A stretch of 64,000 nucleotides of DNA, from positions 46,612 to 110,611 of the forward strand of contig JBMOMC010000002.1 of NCBI GenBank assembly GCA_049325335.1, written 5' to 3'. The stretch is from Nitrospirota bacterium. GTDB taxonomy: Bacteria > Nitrospirota > Nitrospiria > 2-01-FULL-66-17. The notes beneath the pieces are model-generated. The model was given only the letters and a program-made list of their open reading frames with translations. It searched no databases and was not told the DNA's origin. Of the stretch, positions 10,523-21,043 are shown one piece after another (position 1 is the first letter of the stretch; each line of letters starts with the position of its first letter). A program made the translations under genes and the position numbers.

Positions 10523-11269
10523 TCAGCGGCTGGCCGTCGCCTTGGACCCGCTGTGCAACCCGCACTCTTTATGTTCCGGTGACTCCCACCACCACCGGCC
10601 CGCCCGGACATCCTCGCCGGGTTTGATCGCGCGCGTGCACGGCGCGCAGCCGATGCTGGGGAATCCCTGATCGTGCAGCTTATTATAGGGCACTTTATTG
10701 GTTTTGATGTACTCCCACACCTGGGACTCGGACCAGTGGATCAAGGGGTTGAGCTTGGCGATGCCGTTGTGCCCGGCGTCGTGCTCGATCATCGGCATGT
10801 CCGCGCGCGTGACGGCTTGGGCGCTTCGCAGTCCCGTGATCCACGCTCGCAACCCGGAGAGGGCCCGACCCAGGGGCTCGACCTTGCGCACACCGCAGCA
10901 CTCCTTGCGGTTCTCGATGCTTTGATAGAACAGGTTCACGCCCTTGGCTCGCACCATGGACTCGACCGCCGGGGCCTGCGGGAAGTAGGTCTCGATCGAC
11001 ACGCCGTAGCGATCCCGGACCGCGTCCATGACCTCGTAGGTCTCCGAGTGCAGGCGTCCGGTGTCCAAACAGAAGATCCTGGGCGTTCGGTGGAGTTTAC
11101 ACAACATGTCGACCAGCACCACGTCTTCCGCGCCGAAGCTGCACGCGAGCGAGACCTGCGAACCGAACTCGTTGAGCGCCCACTTGAGCACGACTTCGGC
11201 CGGTTGCACGGTGTATTGTTGGTTCAAGGTTTTGAGTTGTTCTTGCGTGTACAACGTAGCGGTGCTCAT
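10523..11269 (-). CDS. cysH: adenylylsulfate (APS) reductase, thioredoxin-dependent, Fe-S type
   Basis: PAPS/APS reductase fold; CC...CxxC pairs (ECCGVRK, CAPC) typical of the Fe-S-containing APS-reducing form. Confidence 0.85.
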   Translation of the reverse strand: MSTATLYTQEQLKTLNQQYTVQPAEVVLKWALNEFGSQVSLACSFGAEDVVLVDMLCKLHRTPRIFCLDTGRLHSETYEVMDAVRDRYGVSIETYFPQAPAVESMVRAKGVNLFYQSIENRKECCGVRKVEPLGRALSGLRAWITGLRSAQAVTRADMPMIEHDAGHNGIAKLNPLIHWSESQVWEYIKTNKVPYNKLHDQGFPSIGCAPCTRAIKPGEDVRAGRWWWESPEHKECGLHSGSKATASR

Positions 11270-11531
11270 CGGGACGTCAGCTCCTCAATCGTCATGGTTC
11301 TGGTGAGTAGAATATGACCGGGTCGGGGTCATCGCCTATCTTGCTTCAGTTGTGAGACTATTCCAACTAGTTTACTCAGAATCTGTTCACTATAAATGGC
11401 CCCTGAACGGCCTGTCAAGGCCACTTATAGCCCGCGGCGCGATCTGCATCGGAACGGTTCCTTGTCAACAAACCGACTCGTTTGTTATTGTTATTCTCCG
11501 TGCGGAACTTGTGAGGTAATCCGTCAACAAC

Positions 11532-12842
11532 ATGCCTTGGTATTCCATACTCGTCATTTTGGCGTTGGTTTTGGCGAACGGGTTTTTTGCGGCCGCTGAG
11601 ATTGCGATCCTGACGGTTCGCAAAAGCCGCATCCTGCACCTGGTCGAAGCCGGGAAGCATCGCGCCAAAGACGTACAACGGCTTCAGGCGGATCCGGAAC
11701 GGTTTCTGGCCACGATCCAGATCGGTATCACCGTGATCAGCGCATTGGCCGGCGCGGTGGGCGGCGTGACCGCGATTGAGAACATCAAACCCTACCTGGA
11801 ACAGATTTCGAACCCGTTGCTGCGGAGCGCAAGCGAAGGCATCGCGTTGACCATTGTGGTGGCGTCGATTTCGTATTTGTCGCTGGTCTTCGGGGAGTTG
11901 GTGCCCAAGTCCCTGGCCTTGCGGTATCCGGAGCAGATCGCGTTGTGGGTGGCGTGGCCGATCGACGCGCTGTCTCGATTCTCGTCGGTGGTGGTCAAGG
12001 TCCTGACGTGGTCCAGCCGGCTGATTCTGCGGCCGCTCGGCGCGCACTCAAAGCCCGCGTTCTTCCCCGAGGAAGAGATCAAAAGCCTCTTGATCGAAGG
12101 GCGAGAGACCGGGGCGATCGATCGGACCGAACAGGAGTTGATCCATTCGGTATTCGAGTTCGCCGACATCTCGGTCAAGGAAGTCATGGTCCCTCCGCCC
12201 AAGATCCACGCGATCAAACTCGATACCCCGCAGGAAGCGGTGCTGGCTGATATTACGGAGAACAAGTTTTCCCGGTATCCGGTGTACCGCGAAGAGCTCA
12301 ACGACATTTGCGGCGTGGTGTATACCAAGGACATTCTCGACGCCATGGTGCGGCGGCGACCGATCGACATCAAGACCCTGATGCACCCCGCGTATTTTGT
12401 CCCCGAGAGTATGAAGGTGAGCCACCTGTTGCAGGAGATGCAGCGCCGGCACACCCAGATGGCGATTGTGGTCAACGAGTATGGGACGGTCGAGGGCTTG
12501 GCGACCATGGAAGATCTGATTGAAGAGATCGTGGGCGAGATTCGGGACGAATACGACTTGGAAGAGCGTCCGGTGGAGCGGCTCAAAGACGGATCATTCG
12601 TGGTGGACGCATCCCTCTCGGTCCGGGATTTGAACGAAGAGTATGGCTTGCCGATTCCGGAGTCCCCGCTGTACGAGACGTTGGGAGGCTTTGTCATGGC
12701 GCAGTTGCAGAACATCCCCCGCAGCGGAGCCATCACCCACCACAATCAGCTCAAGTACACGATCGTGGATATGGAAGGCCGGCGGATCATGAAAGTGAAG
12801 ATCGAAAAGGTGCCGGGCTACGAGAAGACGGCGGTGTCGTAG
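11532..12842 (+). CDS. CNNM/CorC-family transporter (DUF21-CBS pair-CorC_HlyC), putative Mg/Co efflux
   Basis: N-terminal DUF21 membrane domain, tandem CBS region, C-terminal transporter-associated domain. Confidence 0.85.
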   Translation: MPWYSILVILALVLANGFFAAAEIAILTVRKSRILHLVEAGKHRAKDVQRLQADPERFLATIQIGITVISALAGAVGGVTAIENIKPYLEQISNPLLRSASEGIALTIVVASISYLSLVFGELVPKSLALRYPEQIALWVAWPIDALSRFSSVVVKVLTWSSRLILRPLGAHSKPAFFPEEEIKSLLIEGRETGAIDRTEQELIHSVFEFADISVKEVMVPPPKIHAIKLDTPQEAVLADITENKFSRYPVYREELNDICGVVYTKDILDAMVRRRPIDIKTLMHPAYFVPESMKVSHLLQEMQRRHTQMAIVVNEYGTVEGLATMEDLIEEIVGEIRDEYDLEERPVERLKDGSFVVDASLSVRDLNEEYGLPIPESPLYETLGGFVMAQLQNIPRSGAITHHNQLKYTIVDMEGRRIMKVKIEKVPGYEKTAVS

Positions 12843-12968
12843 CTATGAGCCTGTCCATGAGCGGCCATCTGCGGCGTTGCTGCTGCGCTTCCGGTCCTCA
12901 CGTACGACTCAGTACGCTCCGGTCCGGTTCTCGCAGCGCCTTGCATCTGGCGCGCTCCTGAACAGGCT

Positions 12969-12989
12969 CCGCCCTGCTTTGCAGGGCGG
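12969..12989. terminator. bidirectional hairpin between convergent CNNM and pabC genes
   Basis: CCGCCCTGC ttt GCAGGGCGG, perfect 9-bp stem with 3-nt loop. Confidence 0.5.
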
Positions 12990-13859
12990 TTAAGGCTTGA
13001 ACCCCTCCAACATTGCGCCGACGAACTCTTGGTATCGGCGTCGCAGGGCGAGTGTAGCCTGTCCCGGTTGTCCCGATCCGACGTGACGCCCGTCTACTCG
13101 GGTGACCGGTAGTACCTCCATCCCCGTGCTGGTCAGCAAAACCTCGTCGGCTTCCCGGAGCTGATCCGGAGTCAGCCGATCTTCGGCTGACTTGATCCCA
13201 TCGCGGCGCGCTAGATCCAACACCACCTCGCGGGTGATGCCTTGGAGGATGCCGTCGGAGAGCGGCGGGGTGTGAAGTGTGCCGTTCTTGACGCAGAAGA
13301 CATTGCTCACCGTGCCTTCCGCGACGTGCCCCGACTCGGTGCACAACACGGCTTCATCCGCGCCCTGTCCGGAGGCCTCGCGTTTGGCTTGGACGTGCGC
13401 CAGCAGGCTCAGTGATTTGACCGACGGGGTCAGCGCGGCGGGACGGAGGCGGGTGTTGGCGAGGATGACGATCGAGGCTCCGGATCGGTACAACTGATCC
13501 GGGTACCCCGCGAACGGCTGCTCCACGATGACCACCGTGGGAGTGCCGTCGTGCCGAACGTCCCAGCCCGTGGTGACGCCCCTGGTGACGGTGGTGCGAA
13601 CCAGAGCCTCCGGGAGCTCATTCCGCTCGATGAGATCGCGGATCGTCCCGGCGAGCGCCGAAGCCGTCGGCAATGGGGCGATCCCCAGCGCGGTTGCGCC
13701 CTCGATCAGGCGCGCAAGGTGCCGGTCGATCAGAAACGGTTGCCCCCGATACACGCGGAGCGTGTCGAAGACCCCGTCGCCGTATCGAAACCCGCGGTCG
13801 TGGACCGAGACCACCGCCTCGCGGTCAGGGACGAACGTTCCGTTGACCACGGCCCACAC
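12990..13859 (-). CDS. class IV aminotransferase (aminodeoxychorismate lyase or branched-chain aminotransferase)
   Basis: Fold-type IV PLP enzyme pattern; sits 4 nt downstream of pabB, which favours PabC. Confidence 0.7.
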   Translation of the reverse strand: MWAVVNGTFVPDREAVVSVHDRGFRYGDGVFDTLRVYRGQPFLIDRHLARLIEGATALGIAPLPTASALAGTIRDLIERNELPEALVRTTVTRGVTTGWDVRHDGTPTVVIVEQPFAGYPDQLYRSGASIVILANTRLRPAALTPSVKSLSLLAHVQAKREASGQGADEAVLCTESGHVAEGTVSNVFCVKNGTLHTPPLSDGILQGITREVVLDLARRDGIKSAEDRLTPDQLREADEVLLTSTGMEVLPVTRVDGRHVGSGQPGQATLALRRRYQEFVGAMLEGFKP

Positions 13860-13863
13860 CGGA

Positions 13864-15396
13864 TCAACCCACCGCGTCGATCAAGGCCTGGGCTTTATAC
13901 AAGGTCTCGCGGTACTCCTTCTCCGGGTCTGAGTCCGCCACGATCCCCGCGCCGGTGTAGAACGACAGCTCGCCGCGTGTTCGCGTCAACGTGCGGATCA
14001 CAATGTTCCAATCCATGTGGCCCGACCACGACACGTAGCCGATGGACCCGGTGTACAACCCGCGCGACACGGGCTCCAGTTCGTCGATGATTTCCATGCA
14101 GCGGATCTTGGGCACGCCGGTCACGGTCCCGCCGGGGAACACCGCATCCAACACGTCGAAGCCCGTCGCGCCCTCCCGGAGCAGGCCGCGGATATTGGAC
14201 ACGATGTGGATGACGTGCGAGTACCGCTCCGTGACCATCAGCTCATCCACCTTGACCGATCCGTACGCGCACACTCGGCCCAGATCGTTGCGCTCCAGAT
14301 CCACCAACATCAGGTGTTCGGCGCGTTCCTTGGGGTTGAGCAACAAATCGGCCGTGAGATCGTCGTCATCGGTCGGGGTCGCGCCGCGGGGCCTGGTGCC
14401 CGCGATGGGACGGGTTTCCACCTCGCGGCCGGACACCTTGACCAGGCGTTCGGGCGATGAGCAGATGATTTCGGTCTCGCCAAGGTCCACAAACGCCGCG
14501 AACGGGGCGGGGTTAATGGTACGCAGGCGCCGATACACGTCCAACCCGTCGCCGTGATGCGTGGCCGTGAATCGCTGCGCCAGATTCGCCTGGAAGATAT
14601 CGCCCGCCGCGATATAGTCCTTGGCGCGGTCCACCATTGCGCAATACGCCTCGCGCGACATGCCGGCAACGATCGAGGCTGCGGGCGCGGTCGGGCTCAC
14701 GTGTTCCGCGCTGAGGCCACGCGTCACCGCGCCGAGAAAGTCCCTCAGCCTGGTGCGGCCCTCTTCCAGCAGCCGCGCGCGCGGCTCAGCCGCAAATCGC
14801 TCGGGAGACGGACAAAACGACGCGGTAAACGTACGCTCAACGTGATCGAACGCGCCCACGAGATCGAACAACATCCAATGCAGGTCCGGAAAGAAGTCGG
14901 TCCGATCGTGTGGTGCGCCGCGTCGGTGCCGTTGCGAGAGCCTGTACCCCAAGCATCCGATCGCGCCCCCGATAAACGGCGGTGCCCCGGGCGGCGCGGC
15001 CACGGCGCCCGGCAGCATCTGGTCAAACACGGCGGCCAGGGGATCAACCGTCGGCGTGGTCGTGGTTTCGCCGGACGTTGACGTCCAGCGGGTCAACGCG
15101 CCGTGTTGGGCCGTGACAGTCTGATACGGCGCGCCGCCGATGAACGAGTACCGTCCCAGCGCTCCGCGACCGGCTCGGCTCCCACTCTCCAGGAGAAACG
15201 ACGGCGCTGCCGCGCGGATAGCGGAGTACGCATCCACCGGCGCGAGATCCCCAAGTGGAATCGTCGCCAACAGCGGAACCGGCACGCGCGCGTCCAGAAA
15301 CCGGGCTTCATTGGTCAACACGCGCCCATCTTCCCGCGCGACTCCGCGCGCTGTCAAGCAGTCGAGTCGTGGTGAGACGCTCCGTGGCGCGTCCAT
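13864..15396 (-). CDS. pabB: aminodeoxychorismate synthase component I / anthranilate synthase component I family
   Basis: Chorismate-binding enzyme C-terminal pattern (GGTVTGVPKIRCMEIIDELEPVSRGLYTGSIGY). Confidence 0.8.
   Translation of the reverse strand: MDAPRSVSPRLDCLTARGVAREDGRVLTNEARFLDARVPVPLLATIPLGDLAPVDAYSAIRAAAPSFLLESGSRAGRGALGRYSFIGGAPYQTVTAQHGALTRWTSTSGETTTTPTVDPLAAVFDQMLPGAVAAPPGAPPFIGGAIGCLGYRLSQRHRRGAPHDRTDFFPDLHWMLFDLVGAFDHVERTFTASFCPSPERFAAEPRARLLEEGRTRLRDFLGAVTRGLSAEHVSPTAPAASIVAGMSREAYCAMVDRAKDYIAAGDIFQANLAQRFTATHHGDGLDVYRRLRTINPAPFAAFVDLGETEIICSSPERLVKVSGREVETRPIAGTRPRGATPTDDDDLTADLLLNPKERAEHLMLVDLERNDLGRVCAYGSVKVDELMVTERYSHVIHIVSNIRGLLREGATGFDVLDAVFPGGTVTGVPKIRCMEIIDELEPVSRGLYTGSIGYVSWSGHMDWNIVIRTLTRTRGELSFYTGAGIVADSDPEKEYRETLYKAQALIDAVG
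15319..15359. repeat. direct repeat copy 1, inside the pabB 5' coding region
   Basis: 41 bp matching 15572..15612 at 38/41; weaker similarity extends to about 64 bp. Confidence 0.7.
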
Positions 15397-15468
15397 GAAC
15401 GTTCGGTTGATGCGCGGTTGACGGGCGTAATTGGCAGCTGCTATGGTACGCCTATGTTTTATGAGGAT

Positions 15469-15551
15469 GGGGATGTTGTTTAAAGATTAAAAGCTCACTG
15501 CAATACCTGCGGCGCAAACCTCCGATCATAAAATCTTTAAACAACGTCCCC
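15469..15551. repeat. inverted repeat / hairpin, 20-bp arms (19/20) with 43-nt loop
   Basis: GGGGATGTTGTTTAAAGATT ... AATCTTTAAACAACGTCCCC in the AT-rich segment between the two pabB-5' repeat copies. Confidence 0.6.
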
Positions 15552-15571
15552 AATCAGTCCCAATTGGCTAG

Positions 15572-15612
15572 CACGCGTCCATCTTCCCGCGCGGCTCTGC
15601 GCGCTGTCAAGC
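15572..15612. repeat. direct repeat copy 2, diverged duplicate of pabB 5' end
   Basis: Reverse translation gives LTARRAAREDGRVLA versus pabB LTARGVAREDGRVLT; no in-frame start. Confidence 0.7.
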
Positions 15613-15833
15613 GATCAAATGGTGGGGCATTGACGGCTGCGTGATGTCAGAGGCCCTTGACGAGCGCGCGCTGAAGCGTGTTAGGCTGGGTACGCCTTAT
15701 TGGGATTTGACAGTGGAAGTGAAGTGGCTTTGAGACCGTCGTGATAATAAATCTGTCCCGTTAGTTGTAGAGAGGGCCGAAGAAAATGGTTCCTGTCACC
15801 CTCCGGGTCCCTGGCCCCAATCGTGGGCCGCAA

Positions 15834-17009
15834 TCAGTTCAAGGGAACGAATGAATTCCGGAACGACATCCACGCCTCCGCAAACTGTTCAGTCCGACCC
15901 ACATTCGACACCTGGTATTCCTCGTGCAGGCCACTACTGCTCTTGAAGACCAGCGCGCCGTATACGGTGACGGGAATCTGATAGTTGTCCTTGAAACGGC
16001 GATCAGGGCTGCCATCTTTGTTTGTCTTCGCCCAAGTATGCTCGATCACCCGGCTATCAGATGGCACATGCTCGTGCTCAATGAACTGAACTGGTGTGTA
16101 AGTCAGAACGACGTCGCGCGTGTCGATAAGGGCAAAGGCCTCTTTGGACACGCGATAGAGAATAAACCCCGGATAGATCCATAGGTCACCACCATTCCTA
16201 TTCGCGAGGTGAGGCACCTGCTGATCCCAGCTAATTAATTCACTCCGTCCCAGTCTAAACGTGACAGGTTCTCTGGTGATGGCCTCTTTGGCGAGGGATC
16301 GTTCGACAATGGCATTTGTTGGCCGTTTGGTCAGCGTGTCCCAGATCTGTTGGGACTCCGCGAGTGTGGCAAATGTGTCGCGCATGCGGTAATAGGGCTC
16401 AGCTTGCTCGCTAGGAATATCGAACTCGGTTGCTAGTGTTGTGAGGCGGAGCTGCTCTTGCAGCTCCGCTTGCTTGGCGGTCGCAGTGTCAGCGTCATTT
16501 TTGAGTTGGGCAAACCGGGTCTTCCACAGATTTTTAAGTAGAAACCCTCGGTCCCATCGTTGATAGCGGTCCGCAGCGTGCTCTTGCTCGCGGTCTGCAA
16601 GCGCAAGTTCCCTCTCAATTTCGTCGTGCTCATCCCGTGTAGTCTTAAGCAATTTCCGAAACTCCTCGAGGCCCTCACTTGTGAGCATTTGAGTGCTCGC
16701 GCTGCGGACCTCCTGAGTCGGTGCCGCCGGTGGTGAGGTTGGTTTTGGGACGGAAACTGTGTCAGGGGGATCTAGAAACGGAGTGATGCTAGGGACATTC
16801 GCCGGATCAGTTGCGTGGAGCCCCCTCCCAGCGATCCGGGTACGAAAGGACACGCCGGTGCCAGGAGCTGAGACGTTTCCATAAACCCCACGTGGTCCGA
16901 TGTTGAGTGAAAACGGGGCGGTTCCAATGGTTGTACTAATACCACTACGCGAAAGATTGAGGCGGACGCCTGGCAGTAGTTTGAATGTCTTCCTGAACCG
17001 CCAACCCAT
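15834..17009 (-). CDS. DUF4236-family protein with coiled-coil middle and uncharacterised C-terminal domain
   Basis: N-terminus MGWRFRKTFKLLPGVRLNLSRSGISTTIG matches the DUF4236 opening; low-GC codon usage unlike neighbours. Confidence 0.65.
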   Translation of the reverse strand: MGWRFRKTFKLLPGVRLNLSRSGISTTIGTAPFSLNIGPRGVYGNVSAPGTGVSFRTRIAGRGLHATDPANVPSITPFLDPPDTVSVPKPTSPPAAPTQEVRSASTQMLTSEGLEEFRKLLKTTRDEHDEIERELALADREQEHAADRYQRWDRGFLLKNLWKTRFAQLKNDADTATAKQAELQEQLRLTTLATEFDIPSEQAEPYYRMRDTFATLAESQQIWDTLTKRPTNAIVERSLAKEAITREPVTFRLGRSELISWDQQVPHLANRNGGDLWIYPGFILYRVSKEAFALIDTRDVVLTYTPVQFIEHEHVPSDSRVIEHTWAKTNKDGSPDRRFKDNYQIPVTVYGALVFKSSSGLHEEYQVSNVGRTEQFAEAWMSFRNSFVPLN

Positions 17010-17220
17010 GTGTCACTCGCTACTATAACAAGGCAGGAGAACCTCAAATACCCCTCCTATTTACTCGGATTCCCTGTCGGAGTCAATCGACTAACAAGCA
17101 ATCCCTCAGGCTCGCTTCAAAATATCGCAGACAAAGGAACTTATCAGCGCAACGCCCACCGAGTGACGCAAAGTAAGGGCCTCTCTCCTAACCCGCGTTG
17201 GTTTTGACACGAGGTCGGCT

Positions 17221-19008
17221 GTGGCTATACTTGGCCGCGTCGCGAGGGGAGCCGTTTGGTCGGTCTTCCTCGCGCTCTTACTTATCGCAGACATGGTGCA
17301 CGAACCCCTCAAGCCGGCATCTGTTGGAGCCCAGCTGGCACCCGAAAATCCTTTGGTCGAGTCCGCCCGCGAGGTGATGCGCGGGTTGGTCAAGGCCGTC
17401 AAAGCGTCGAAGATGTATCTGCCGGAGCACGAGATTTGCCGGAAGTTCCGAGACGATTTTGCAGGGCGGCTGTTGCGGCATCTGGACGAACAGGGCGACC
17501 TGGCGCTGACGGTCAAGGGGTGCGAGTTCTATGTCGGAGACACGCCGGTGTATGAGGAGCCCAACCGGTTCGAGAATCTGGCGTTTCGGTGTTCGTCGGA
17601 CGGCCTTTGTGAATTGGTCCTCCACCAGGGGCTGACGCGCGCAGACCTCGACCGGTTGTTGGATGTGCTCACGTCCGACGCGCGGCCGCTGGACAACGAC
17701 ATTGTCACTAGGTTGTGGGAGCAGCCGATTCCGCACGTCACGTATGAAGTGGCCGAGGTCGATGAAGCCTCGGATCGCGAGGTGGCGCTGTCATCCCGAC
17801 CGCCGGGCGCGAGATCGTTGTCCGAAGCCGCTGATGACGCTCCAGGGGCCGGGGCGCCCGCTCCTGAGCCGGAGGTCATTCCCGACTCGCTGCGTCATGA
17901 CAGTCCGGTGTTCACGCTGACGGATCAGGACATCGAGTTGCTGCAACGGCAAGTGGTGGAAGACAGCACGCAGGATTACGTGGGGCAGTTGATCGATATT
18001 CTGACGTCGATTCTGATGTTGGACGACGATGAGCAGTCGTTTCTGGAAGTGTTGCAGGTGTTGGACGACATTGTGGCCGCCAGCGTCACGCAGGATCGGT
18101 TCGAGCGCGCCAACGATATCGTGAGCCGGTTGTCGGCGTTGCGGGACGACGAGGTCAAGGTCTCGGCGCGCAGTCGCGAGTTGATTCGCGTAGTCTGGAC
18201 CCAGATGGGGAGTTGGGAGCGCGTGGCGCCCTTGGGGAATTCCCTCAGTCGGCAAGGCGCGTGGGAGTCGGACGCCATTGCGCGCTATCTGATCCAACTG
18301 CCGTCTTCCGCCGTGGACTCGCTGATCACTCTGCTCGATCACGTGCAGACCGCCAAAGGGCGACGGATCATTTGCGACGCGTTGACCGCGTTTGCGGGCG
18401 AGGCGCTGGACGCCATGCTCTCGCGGCTTCCGGAGGCGCCTTGGTACGTGGCGCGCAATCTGATCTATGTTCTGGGGCGCGTGAAGGATCCTCGTGCTCA
18501 GCCGGCATTGGAAACGTTCATGGGGCATGCCGATGTGCGCCTTCGCCGCGAAACGCTCAAGGCGTTGGAAGCGCTCGGCGCCGAGCGGCTGGCCGAGGCG
18601 CTTCCCCAGTGGTTGGGTGATGATGACGACGGGGTGCGACTGCACGTGCTTCGTTTGGCGCGCCGTCATCCATCGCGGGATCTTCTGGCGGCCTTGATCG
18701 CGGCGATCAATGACCGCGGGTTTGCCCACCGCAAGGACGCGGAACAGCGCGAGTGGTTTGATACGCTCGCGGATGTTGGGGGCGACGCGGCGTTGTCGCT
18801 GATCCGGCCGTGGTTGGAGCTGGGACGCGGGTGGCGGCAACTCTGGTCGGCGCGGCACGATGCGCGGGCGCGGCATGCCGTGGCGCTGGTGCGGCGAGTC
18901 GGGTCCTCCGCCGCGGTGGCGCTCTTGCGGGAAACCGTCGCGTCCGCGCGAGGGGACATCCGCGAGGAAGCGCGCCGCGCCCTGCAGGACCTGGAGCGTG
19001 CGGCGTGA
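17221..19008 (+). CDS. HEAT-repeat protein
   Basis: Repeated HEAT/PBS-lyase-like units in the C-terminal half; GTG start; stop overlaps next gene start. Confidence 0.7.
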   Translation: MAILGRVARGAVWSVFLALLLIADMVHEPLKPASVGAQLAPENPLVESAREVMRGLVKAVKASKMYLPEHEICRKFRDDFAGRLLRHLDEQGDLALTVKGCEFYVGDTPVYEEPNRFENLAFRCSSDGLCELVLHQGLTRADLDRLLDVLTSDARPLDNDIVTRLWEQPIPHVTYEVAEVDEASDREVALSSRPPGARSLSEAADDAPGAGAPAPEPEVIPDSLRHDSPVFTLTDQDIELLQRQVVEDSTQDYVGQLIDILTSILMLDDDEQSFLEVLQVLDDIVAASVTQDRFERANDIVSRLSALRDDEVKVSARSRELIRVVWTQMGSWERVAPLGNSLSRQGAWESDAIARYLIQLPSSAVDSLITLLDHVQTAKGRRIICDALTAFAGEALDAMLSRLPEAPWYVARNLIYVLGRVKDPRAQPALETFMGHADVRLRRETLKALEALGAERLAEALPQWLGDDDDGVRLHVLRLARRHPSRDLLAALIAAINDRGFAHRKDAEQREWFDTLADVGGDAALSLIRPWLELGRGWRQLWSARHDARARHAVALVRRVGSSAAVALLRETVASARGDIREEARRALQDLERAA

Positions 19009-20474
19009 CGCGCGGCGGGACTCCTCATCACGCGGCGCCCAAACTGTTCGATGCGGTCAAGGGCAGTCACATCCGAGACGAGAACCTGCACCGGATCGGC
19101 AAACGCCTCGTGTATCAAGTTCACATTCTCCTCAAGACCGCGCACATCCATTTGGCGGGCAACGTGGCGCTGAGTCAATCCGCGGACCGGCTGGTCAAGA
19201 CCGTCGTGGAGGTGCACGACTGGCGGGCCGAGCCCGTGTTGCGCCAGGACGGCGATCATGTATACCTCGATGACATTCGGCTCAAGGTTGATCTGGAAGG
19301 GTACATCGGGTTCAGCGAAGTGATCGCCGCTATGCAGGCGCGCGGGGTGGGAAGCGTTCGGTTCGACGCGGGCCTGAGCCCTGGAGACGTCATCGCGTTC
19401 GCGCACGAGTGGGCGACCGCCGCGACCACGACCGCGGAGGAACTGGGCGCGGCCCTGACCCGCGTTGGGGTGTCGCACGTGGAGGTTGCCCCGCCGCTGT
19501 CGGCCCGCGCGAAGCCGTCCCGCGAACACGAGAGCCAGAAAGCGGTGGCCAAACGCACCTACTTCCGCACGATCTCCGCCGTCGCGGAGGTGATGGAGAG
19601 CGTCAAACTCAAACAGGCGGTGGGCGTACGAAAGTCCAAACGCGTGGTGCAGGGCCTCGTGGACAACCTGTTGCAGGATGAGAACACCTTGCTGGGTCTC
19701 ACCACGCTGCGAAGCCACGACGAATACACGTACAGCCATTGCGTGAACGTCTGTATCCTCGCGCTCTCGATCGGTCAGCGGCTGGGTTATGAACGGACGC
19801 ACCTGTCCGAACTCGGCGTAGCCGCCCTGTTCCACGACGTGGGGAAGACGGACATTCCACTGGAGATCCTGAACAAGGCGGGGGATTTCACGCCGGAGGA
19901 CTGGCGGGTCATTCGGCGGCATCCCGTGTATGGCGTGAAAAGCCTGTTGCGCCTCAAGGGGCTCGACGACGTGTCCACGAAGATCGTGATCGCGGGATTC
20001 GAGCATCACCTCAATTATGACTTGTCGGGGTATCCCAAGATCGCAGTGCCGCGCAAACTCACCTTGTTCGGGCGGATCATCTCGCTCGCGGATTGTTACG
20101 ACGCCATGACCGCCTCGCGCGTGTACAGCCGGGTGCCGCTGTCGCCCGACAAGGCGTTGAGCCTCATGGCGGCCAAGGCCGGGACGGTGTACGACCCGTT
20201 ATTGCTCAAGGTGTTCGCCAACACGATGGGCGTGTACCCGGTGGGGACGATTGTGCGGTTCGACACCGGGGAACTGGCGGTGGTCGTCGGTGGCCACCAG
20301 TCCGCGGATCGCCGCGCGCATCCATTGGTCAAACTTATTCGTGACGCCTCGGGCCGCGAGGTGGACGGGGACACGATCGACCTCGCGGCCGCGAACGCGC
20401 GTCCGACGCGTCGGATCGTGGACACCGCGGACGCCCAGTCGCTCGGCATCGACCTCGCCCGGTACTTTCTGTAG
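19005..20474 (+). CDS. HD-GYP domain phosphohydrolase (putative c-di-GMP phosphodiesterase) with N-terminal sensor region
   Basis: HD motif (ALFHDVGK), HHLNYDLSGYP (GYP motif); GTG 19005 overlaps the HEAT gene stop (GTGA). Confidence 0.8.
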   Translation: MTRGGTPHHAAPKLFDAVKGSHIRDENLHRIGKRLVYQVHILLKTAHIHLAGNVALSQSADRLVKTVVEVHDWRAEPVLRQDGDHVYLDDIRLKVDLEGYIGFSEVIAAMQARGVGSVRFDAGLSPGDVIAFAHEWATAATTTAEELGAALTRVGVSHVEVAPPLSARAKPSREHESQKAVAKRTYFRTISAVAEVMESVKLKQAVGVRKSKRVVQGLVDNLLQDENTLLGLTTLRSHDEYTYSHCVNVCILALSIGQRLGYERTHLSELGVAALFHDVGKTDIPLEILNKAGDFTPEDWRVIRRHPVYGVKSLLRLKGLDDVSTKIVIAGFEHHLNYDLSGYPKIAVPRKLTLFGRIISLADCYDAMTASRVYSRVPLSPDKALSLMAAKAGTVYDPLLLKVFANTMGVYPVGTIVRFDTGELAVVVGGHQSADRRAHPLVKLIRDASGREVDGDTIDLAAANARPTRRIVDTADAQSLGIDLARYFL

Positions 20475-20600
20475 CCGCAGCGCGGTCTCCCCTTGATTTT
20501 CCCTCAGGCTGTGGTGTATCTCTATCCCGGTTTTGGGGACGGGTGTCCCCCTCCGGAATATGCATCCAACTGACATGAGAGAGGGGAGGTGATCGTAGTG

Positions 20601-20897
20601 ATGAAGAAGCTCGTGGTGGTGCCCTTGATTGCCGCGCTGTTGATGCTGCCCTTGACCGGGTGTGAATCCAAAAAGCTCAAAGAGGAGAACGCGAGTCTGA
20701 AACAACAAGTGGACTCGTTGACCCAAGAGAAGAACGGGTTGGCGGCGAAGACCGACGAATTGAGCAAGTCCAACATGGACCTCCAGGCGAAGATCGGCGA
20801 CTTGGAAAAGAAGGTGGAAGAGTTGTCAAAGCCGAAACCGGCTCCGAAGCCCGCGGCGAAGGCGCCCGCCAAGAAAGCTCCGGCGAAGAAGAAGTAA
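20601..20897 (+). CDS. Lpp-like coiled-coil lipoprotein with Lys/Ala/Pro-rich tail
   Basis: Signal peptide + lipobox LTGC, heptad-like segment, tail KPKPAPKPAAKAPAKKAPAKKK; GGAGG 11 nt upstream of ATG 20601. Confidence 0.6.
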   Translation: MKKLVVVPLIAALLMLPLTGCESKKLKEENASLKQQVDSLTQEKNGLAAKTDELSKSNMDLQAKIGDLEKKVEELSKPKPAPKPAAKAPAKKAPAKKK

Positions 20898-20921
20898 GGC
20901 GGTTGTCGATGATGTGTCGCG

Positions 20922-20946
20922 AGGGCGGACCGATTCGGTCCGCCCT
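20922..20946 (+). terminator. hairpin terminator after lipoprotein gene
   Basis: AGGGCGGACCG att CGGTCCGCCCT, perfect 11-bp stem, followed by T-containing tract. Confidence 0.55.
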
Positions 20947-21043
20947 TCGTGTTGTGGCTCCGCGTCATTCGTGGGGTGGCGTAGGGCTGCTGGGTTCAGG
21001 GCTTTACACGGTTCTGCGGCCGGCAGTAGGATAGCGGGACCCG

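Follow-up and report, generated by a model that had tools for sequence, protein, structure and literature searches.

How does a gene of low GC content come to stand alone between two blocks of core genes on a Nitrospirota chromosome, and what could it be doing there? The question is raised by contig JBMOMC010000002.1 of a Nitrospirota bacterium (assembly GCA_049325335.1), of which a stretch of 64,000 nucleotides, here called the window, was analysed. On its minus strand, between a divergent HEAT-repeat gene and pabB, lies an open reading frame (ORF) for a 391-residue protein with an N-terminal DUF4236 domain, and beside pabB there are a diverged direct repeat and a hairpin. We are very confident of the genomic part of the answer, which is that the gene was inserted horizontally into a variable hotspot and that a scar of insertion sequence (IS) and miniature inverted-repeat transposable element (MITE) origin lies alongside it. 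Our best explanation taken as a whole, in which an acquired block of ~1.4 kb (roughly 15801-17180) with one intact gene sits between the divergent core genes HEAT-repeat/HD and pabB/pabC, is one that we regard as probable.

The gene and the HEAT-pabB gap

Read along the minus strand, the order is the divergent HEAT-repeat gene (itself on the plus strand), the ORF from 17009 to 15834, ~440 bp of non-coding DNA, pabB and a pabC-like gene. The ORF has a GC content of 0.547, the lowest total GC among the 48 long ORFs of the window (mean GC of the window 0.63), and its GC at third codon positions (GC3) is 0.587 against 0.77-0.80 in all five neighbour genes. The few long ORFs with similarly low GC3 show GC1 greater than GC3 and are read as wrong-frame ORFs, and the 391-residue gene keeps the lowest credible GC3. 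Measured in 300-nt windows, GC is 0.51-0.59 between 15350 and 17300, compared with 0.64-0.70 in pabB and 0.61-0.73 in the HEAT and HD genes. A preliminary description of this DNA had reported such a drop, which is real, but its figure of about 50% was too low, the measured value being ~54%. The public annotation of this metagenome-assembled genome (MAG) calls a shorter product, the 272-residue ‘hypothetical protein ACOYXR_03695’ (P0001), which starts at a TTG at codon 120 and misses the DUF4236 domain. The homologues indicate that the real gene is the 391-residue ORF from the ATG at 17009.

The gap was compared in relatives found by protein search with pabB (86-89%, 72% and lower identity). 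Species-representative genomes contain no close relative, their best pabB match being only 45-46% identical, and they yielded the more distant genome L001. The comparison covers four genomes, and the contigs of L093 and L094 are incomplete on the HEAT side. In L095 (Nitrospirota MAG GCA_040757335, pabB 72%), the HD and HEAT genes are separated from divergent pabB and pabC by 172 bp, the gap is empty, and the CNNM, PAPS reductase and sulfite reductase genes downstream follow in the window's order. HEAT and pabB also adjoin in L001 with no gene between them. The closer relatives carry other cargo. L093 (pabB 86%) has a gene for a 168-residue nucleotidyltransferase-like protein and ORFs of 67 and 149 codons upstream of pabB before the contig ends, and in L094 (pabB 89%) the gap holds a DUF488 gene, a truncated ISL3 transposase gene and a MITE. 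The HEAT-pabB gap is a variable hotspot in this lineage, empty in some relatives and differently filled in closer ones, and none of the relatives has the DUF4236 gene in a conserved position at native GC. Variable cargo sites between core genes are known as ‘integration hotspots’ or defence islands. This gap resembles them in being empty or variably filled; unlike them, it has no recombinase tied to the site in the four genomes.

The limits of the insertion can be drawn from the same comparison. By blastn, window positions 15801-17352 have no counterpart in the relatives' loci, and both sides are matched. By eye, the intergenic similarity to L095 runs ~15-20 nt beyond the -35 box of the HEAT gene, which places the left end of the insertion near 17180. 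On the pabB side, similarity to L094 sets in at 15800, and the right junction therefore lies near that position and not at the repeat. The block that finds no homology in the relatives contains a single ORF, the DUF4236 gene, and encodes no recombinase. The gene's own promoter and leader are presumed to lie in 17010..17180. Nor is there an integrase, transposase or tRNA gene near the gene, its flanks being core genes collinear with L095. A 12-nt imperfect inverted repeat near 17180 and 15770 was considered as the ends of the islet and rejected, the right copy falling inside native sequence shared with L094.

Three observations weigh against this picture. In the two closest relatives the contig breaks off or changes short of the HEAT side, leaving the hotspot partly visible; the inserted block has no flanking repeats, integrase or tRNA; and the word-index search found no donor more than 56% identical. 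As to the route, entry by homologous recombination in the flanking core genes is only a guess.

The cargo of the closer relatives has features of its own. In L093 (852-1554) the gene for the 168-residue nucleotidyltransferase-like protein overlaps the 67-codon ORF in a toxin-antitoxin-like arrangement, and the low-GC ORF for 149 residues (165-614) encodes, as read from its sequence, cysteine pairs and a coiled-coil-like stretch. L094 (1-2230) carries, besides DUF488, a 5'-truncated ISL3 transposase gene, at whose borders lie one IS end and a complete copy of the MITE; a possible gene C-terminus at ~715-785 is cut by the IS end, and the first 668 bp are not matched within the compared part of the window (11000-21000).

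The protein and its family

The preliminary description had held that the only gene of the islet encodes a protein with a DUF4236 N-terminus, a coiled-coil middle and an unrecognised C-terminal domain, and this is borne out. Pfam DUF4236 (PF14020) matches residues 3-56 over its whole length (profile 1-55 of 55) with 69.6 bits against a gathering cutoff of 27 (E 3.1e-19), the middle is a helical hairpin, and Pfam, NCBIfam and PADLOC have no match in the C-terminal part. The protein also matches the phage family phrog_17982 from end to end (E 7.2e-83, residues 1-381 against profile 1-375 of 390). A word-index search returned 931 homologues, of which every one of the best 120 shows 46-56% identity across 92% or more of the length and the closest show 50-56% across 99%; the named ones among the best 120 of the 931 come from MAGs of Acidobacteriota, Verrucomicrobiota and Bacteroidota. 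An exhaustive search gave 486 cluster representatives (clusters at 50% identity) at E <= 1e-30; relaxing the limit to E <= 1e-3 raised the number to 7851, with the additional matches probably confined to DUF4236. In an alignment of 54 sequences the mean column identity is 57% across phyla and 52 columns are invariant, all 52 of which the window protein keeps. Two invariant elements stand out: the motif E-[IV]-R-S-A-S-T-E-L-L-[TN]-S within a disordered stretch and a loop of pattern W-AK-NKDG-PD-RF-NN-QIP.

About half of the members have a further C-terminal extension of 130-330 residues. Pfam finds in the extensions of long members only Sel1 repeats, which occur in a few of them. The conserved helical extension of many members, seen in P0003, P0026 and P0112 (residues ~400-615) and typified by ...LWEYLLTEELL.SKL...YDDFD...RPFSGPDY..WL..., has no Pfam match.

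The AlphaFold2 model of the window protein has a predicted local distance difference test (pLDDT) score of 84 over the full length and 90.9 for the C-domain, and divides the chain into the four parts listed in Table 1. The N-domain (residues 1-62) is polybasic, with 10 Lys/Arg and no Asp/Glu (family means 8.8 and 0.9). The C-domain is modelled as a beta-sandwich closed by a C-terminal helix, and all of its top structural neighbours are of PH, PTB, FERM-F3 or FACT type, which points to a PH-like fold. The same sandwich and C-terminal helix are found in the PH domain of Sin1 (PDB 3voq) and in a bacterial PH protein (PDB 3b77). Within the modelled 391 residues no transmembrane segment was predicted and no enzyme fold was found, and the C-terminal domain, being PH-like, does not match a housekeeping enzyme. 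A Foldseek search of the PDB with the full model gave no match for the DUF4236 N-domain in the top 50, and a profile search of PDB sequences gave only coiled-coil noise (E at least 0.037). These models amount to the first structural description of the DUF4236 family, as a polybasic head, a helical hairpin and a predicted PH-like domain.

Homologues are found in mobile surroundings. On long genomic contigs they lie among HNH, integrase and transposase genes and series of ORFs that Pfam does not match; 41 viral contigs carry one, often as the last gene of a predicted prophage. No neighbour is common across the genome and viral loci, and in 43 of 45 fetched loci the GC of the homologue is lower than that of the rest of the locus. 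In enterobacterial prophages the homologue occupies the accessory end, where its neighbours are umuDC, yedK, tail-fibre assembly genes and a gene for a hin-type invertase. A 400-residue homologue (WP_039022691.1) is present in 122 of 5426 complete Escherichia coli genomes, in a lambdoid prophage at icd, where it lies between the tail-fibre genes and the attachment (att) end and is flanked by DUF3800 and DUF2971 genes. In the Microcystis phage Mea-Yong924-1 the homologue QXN68084.1 directly follows terL on the same strand. The DUF4236 family thus travels mainly as a solitary accessory gene, or ‘moron’, of prophages and integrative islands.

The two named members of phrog_17982, WP_039022691.1 and QXN68084.1, share the full-length architecture and length of the window protein at 34-38% identity, and members of that family are, like the window gene, solitary, in mobile context and of lower GC than their flanks. 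Unlike these phage members, the window gene is stranded between core genes of a Nitrospirota chromosome with no surrounding prophage. No member of phrog_17982 has a known function, so membership gives no mechanism. Lambdoid prophages carry accessory genes (morons, defence hotspots) between their tail-fibre genes and att. The E. coli homologue lies at exactly that place, has low GC and forms its own transcription unit; unlike the known defence genes of prophage ends, the DUF4236 family matches no PADLOC model and has no known defence phenotype.

The E. coli neighbours may be recorded here. The DUF2971 neighbour in strain SCU-113 (L138 10461-11201) matches the PADLOC candidate PDC-S31 (E 1.6e-16) and the DUF3800 neighbour (L138 6698-7432) has a weak match to PDC-M04A. 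Together they make up a small cluster, accessory or defence-like, where the lambdoid prophage at icd ends. Downstream of two environmental homologues, L083 9223-10125 and L089 8312-9295 resemble Lamassu LmuA (E 5e-6) and LmuB (E 3e-3), matches too weak to interpret.

Table 1. Features of the locus (window coordinates) and of the predicted protein (residue numbers).
Feature	Position	Strand	Basis
Intact DUF4236 / coiled-coil / predicted PH-like gene	15834..17009	minus	ORF, 391 aa; Pfam, phrog_17982, structure models, GC3
Upstream flank of inserted gene	17010..17180	minus	GC 0.51; blastn, no homology to any relative's locus
Downstream flank of inserted gene	15801..15833	minus	L094 homology begins at window 15800
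Native pabB-upstream intergenic DNA, L094 type, now parted from pabB	15634..15800	minus	blastn to L094
Repeat copy B, relic pabB promoter (TTGACA ... GAAGAT) with GTG and three codons	15563..15627	minus	blastn 82-89%; upstream-region alignment of L093, L094, L095
Hairpin, putative ISL3-derived MITE	15464..15563	.	93% identical to L094 1490-1589
Relic, first 5 codons (ATGTTTTATGAGGA...) of nucleotidyltransferase-like gene and intergenic DNA	15409..15469	plus	blastn 84% to L093 1539-1599
Repeat copy A, working pabB promoter/5' end	15310..15372	minus	-35-like TTGACA 15357-15352, GTG 15321-15319; motif kept in L093, L094, L095
pabB/trpE-family chorismate-utilising enzyme, native core gene	13864..15321	minus	Pfam Chorismate_bind and Anth_synt_I_N; NCBIfam; synteny with L093, L094, L095
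pabC-like class IV aminotransferase	12990-13859		after pabB
HEAT-gene promoter-like site TTGACA-16-TATACT	17204..17231	plus	promoter scan, 11/12 matches; native, equivalent boxes in L095
Six-strand beta-meander, DUF4236, glycine-rich	residues 7-60		AlphaFold2
Disordered Pro-rich linker ending in invariant short motif	residues 62-107		AlphaFold2
Helical hairpin, long helices	residues 111-189		AlphaFold2
Predicted PH-like alpha/beta C-domain with invariant polar loop	residues 200-385		AlphaFold2

What the gene may do

The models suggest that the protein could be a non-enzymatic scaffold or sensor. Its basic head would hold it on an anionic surface, either membrane or nucleic acid, and the helical hairpin would oligomerise it. 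The PH-like domain would bind a ligand, which could be the family's own invariant linear motif, with auto-inhibition as the result, or a phage protein. The pay-off would then most likely lie in phage-phage or phage-host conflict, as exclusion of competitors or as abortive infection. A role in phage conflict is plausible. The particular route through head, hairpin and PH-like domain to exclusion or abortive infection, drawn as it is from predicted structures, is put forward tentatively, and the odds do not favour it. It is doubtful, too, that the family as a whole is a system of a kind so far unrecognised, in which a single non-enzymatic protein, spread by prophages across many phyla from Enterobacteria to Nitrospirota, excludes phages or aborts infection. 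In such a system a component of the phage would be sensed by the PH-like domain, and the polybasic DUF4236 head would act at the membrane or on nucleic acid. The case for defence is circumstantial, consisting of the accessory location in prophages and the PADLOC candidate gene beside the E. coli homologue.

Several results count against a defensive function. PADLOC-DB 2.0 has no match to the window protein at E <= 0.1 or to the E. coli homologue at E <= 0.01, and no functional match to the window protein was obtained from NCBIfam or Pfam. In the searchable literature DUF4236/PF14020 is named only once, in passing, in connection with a Salmonella prophage remnant. For a defence gene the family shows unusually strong conservation, and the Microcystis homologue lies in a packaging and structural block, which fits a role in the phage life cycle. 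The other literature matches to PF14020 are unrelated Plasmodium gene identifiers.

Such a life-cycle role, in assembly, packaging, lysis timing or host take-over, would make the Nitrospirota copy the remnant of a decayed prophage and of no benefit to its present host. The position immediately after terL in Microcystis phage and the existence of a PHROG for the family agree with this, and conservation across phyla is what would be expected of a machine part rather than of an arms-race gene. The enterobacterial homologues, however, lie outside the structural operon, beyond the tail-fibre genes and by the att end, with GC below that of the prophage, and phage structural genes are absent from many homologue loci. 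The window copy, although solitary, is intact and retains every invariant residue, which argues for selection in the cell. On balance this alternative is unlikely.

That the gene is a single-protein toxin or addiction element, kept because its loss kills the cell, is highly unlikely. It is solitary, low in GC and found in mobile contexts, one homologue locus has an HTH_3 regulator 80 bp upstream, and the hotspot in L093 holds a nucleotidyltransferase-like gene and a small ORF resembling a toxin-antitoxin pair, all of which would suit such an element. Nevertheless, neither a conserved two-gene nor a toxin-plus-RNA arrangement was found: no conserved partner or antitoxin-sized neighbour occurs across the genome and viral loci, and no Rfam match reaches threshold in 15200-17400. 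In place of a toxin fold or catalytic motif there is only the predicted PH-like domain, and a multidomain scaffold of 391 residues does not resemble known addiction toxins.

The repeat and hairpin beside pabB

The diverged repeat of the pabB 5' region and its hairpin, also reported in the preliminary description, are real and far beyond chance. The two 63-nt copies (15310-15372 and 15563-15625) have 83% identity at a spacing of 253 bp. Their 33-nt degenerate core occurs at these two sites only in the window, where shuffled sequences are expected to give none, and the window holds no third copy. The start of pabB is the GTG at 15321, in agreement with the public annotation (485 residues) and with relatives (485-488 residues); the repeat is therefore mostly promoter and 5' leader and includes only four codons. 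Copy A is the working pabB 5' end. Copy B is truncated at the flank of the MITE and is homologous to L094 2461-2516. Between copy B and the inserted gene the DNA is again of L094 type, with 15800-15770 matching L094 669-699 (87%) and 15762-15634 matching L094 2230-2357 (72%). The repeat thus does not bracket the DUF4236 gene.

The hairpin has arms of 21 nt (15468-15488 and 15532-15552; 95% complementary) and a 43-nt loop, and folded as DNA it gives z = -4.7. Its arm recurs at L094 786-819, where it immediately follows the stop of a truncated gene for a DDE_Tnp_ISL3 transposase (Pfam E 5e-60). A metagenome scan with a 20-nt arm found six more contigs, the flanks of which are all different; one (L140) holds a complete miniature copy and the other five have solo ends. 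In the metagenome loci the MITE ends have no transposase beside them, no complete IS with its two ends was recovered, and the window has no transposase gene. From these sequences the hairpin is best understood as a MITE of an ISL3-type element. Like other ISL3-derived MITEs it is ~100 bp long, lacks an ORF and has copies in unrelated flanks, and its 21-nt terminal inverted repeats correspond to the end beside the ISL3 transposase gene. A scan of 15200-17400 with Rfam gave on the MITE one sub-threshold snoRNA match (27.9 bits against a threshold of 50), dismissed as chance.

The window copy probably did not arise by simple insertion. An ISL3-derived MITE inserted in that way has an 8-bp target duplication, and none is present around this one (flanks ggactgat and tcctcata); its flanks are instead the truncated starts of two genes, both directed into the element. 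On the pabB side these are a five-codon relic followed by intergenic DNA of L093 type and then copy A, the gene in question being the nucleotidyltransferase-like one that is intact in L093 (1048..1554, with weak DUF6036 and aminoglycoside nucleotidyltransferase matches) and truncated by the MITE in the window. The missing duplication and the two truncated starts indicate recombination or deletion at the element. In the spacer between the -35 and -10 boxes, copies A and B differ at 2 of 17 positions and each differs from L093 and L094 at 5-6 of 17, as counted on the alignment; A and B share derived spacer bases. Together with the truncated starts and the absent duplication, these shared bases favour a path in which duplication took place first, inside the lineage, and IS copies then recombined or lost the DNA between them.

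An alternative is that a site-specific element carrying the DUF4236 gene entered the 5' end of pabB and brought a replacement start, the repeats being attL and attR. Elements that integrate into gene ends duplicate those ends, and a diverged direct repeat of the pabB 5' region does adjoin the islet. But both copies are on one side of the gene, and what they enclose is only 190 bp made up of the MITE and the five-codon relic. Homology to L094 identifies the stretch from the gene to copy B as native pabB-upstream DNA, there is no integrase or tRNA, and the hairpin arms are IS ends found in unrelated contexts. Neither repeats flanking the cargo nor an integrase or recombinase gene, the marks of a site-specific integrative element, were found. 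Since it does not flank the gene, the pabB repeat is not an att pair for it, and this model is very improbable. Of the insertion proposed in the preliminary description, the foreign single gene stands, as a GC and GC3 outlier with an empty site in L095 and L001, while the site-specific event that preserved the pabB start does not, the repeats flanking the MITE. Least probable of all is a native gene whose odd composition stems from amino-acid content or expression level, since although its GC1 and GC2 (0.59 and 0.46) are near its neighbours' values, its GC3 is far below theirs, the syntenic site lacks it in L095 and L001 and holds other genes in L093 and L094, and its nearest homologues, at ~55% identity, are in other phyla.

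Some observations on the flanking core genes and on the wider neighbourhood may be added. The motif gcTTGACA-N17/18-GAAGAT-N6-GTG upstream of pabB is conserved in all four genomes in which it was located (window 15319-15357, minus strand; L093 1606-1644; L094 2476-2514; L095 7964-8003). Its -10-like box is only ~6-7 nt from the start codon, and the pabB mRNA may be leaderless or nearly so; alternatively, GGGAAG may be its ribosome-binding site. On the other side, the HEAT coding sequence probably starts at the ATG at 17293, the alignment of HEAT proteins beginning at residue 28. The HEAT-repeat protein (~570-615 residues) and the HD_5/HD (HD-GYP-like) protein that follows it are a conserved pair beside pabB in distant Nitrospirota (window 17221-20474, L001 2990-6308, L095 4644-7828), with identities between window and L001 of 27% for HEAT and 45% for HD. 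The HEAT protein has a weak match to PADLOC ‘HEAT-ARM_XIII’. A small plus-strand ORF of low GC (0.56) at 20589-20897, conserved as DNA in L095, encodes a lipoprotein-like peptide with a signal sequence ending in LTGC, a coiled coil and a Lys/Ala/Pro-rich tail. At 11150-11750 the intergenic DNA between the PAPS-reductase and CNNM/CorC genes shows a second dip in GC (0.49-0.54) and only partial homology to relatives; apart from the CNNM gene and one antisense ORF, no ORF of at least 60 codons was seen there (ORF list from 12000).

Taken alone, the locus is ordinary: the hotspot and the MITE are known biology, and the gene joins a catalogued family to which no function has been assigned. It does illustrate that a repeat and a hairpin at the edge of an island may represent IS debris and not an att site. 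What makes it useful is that it draws attention to a large and unusually well conserved family that is borne by prophages in many phyla. The homologue in E. coli lambdoid prophages is close in architecture, which makes the role of the family testable in a standard host.

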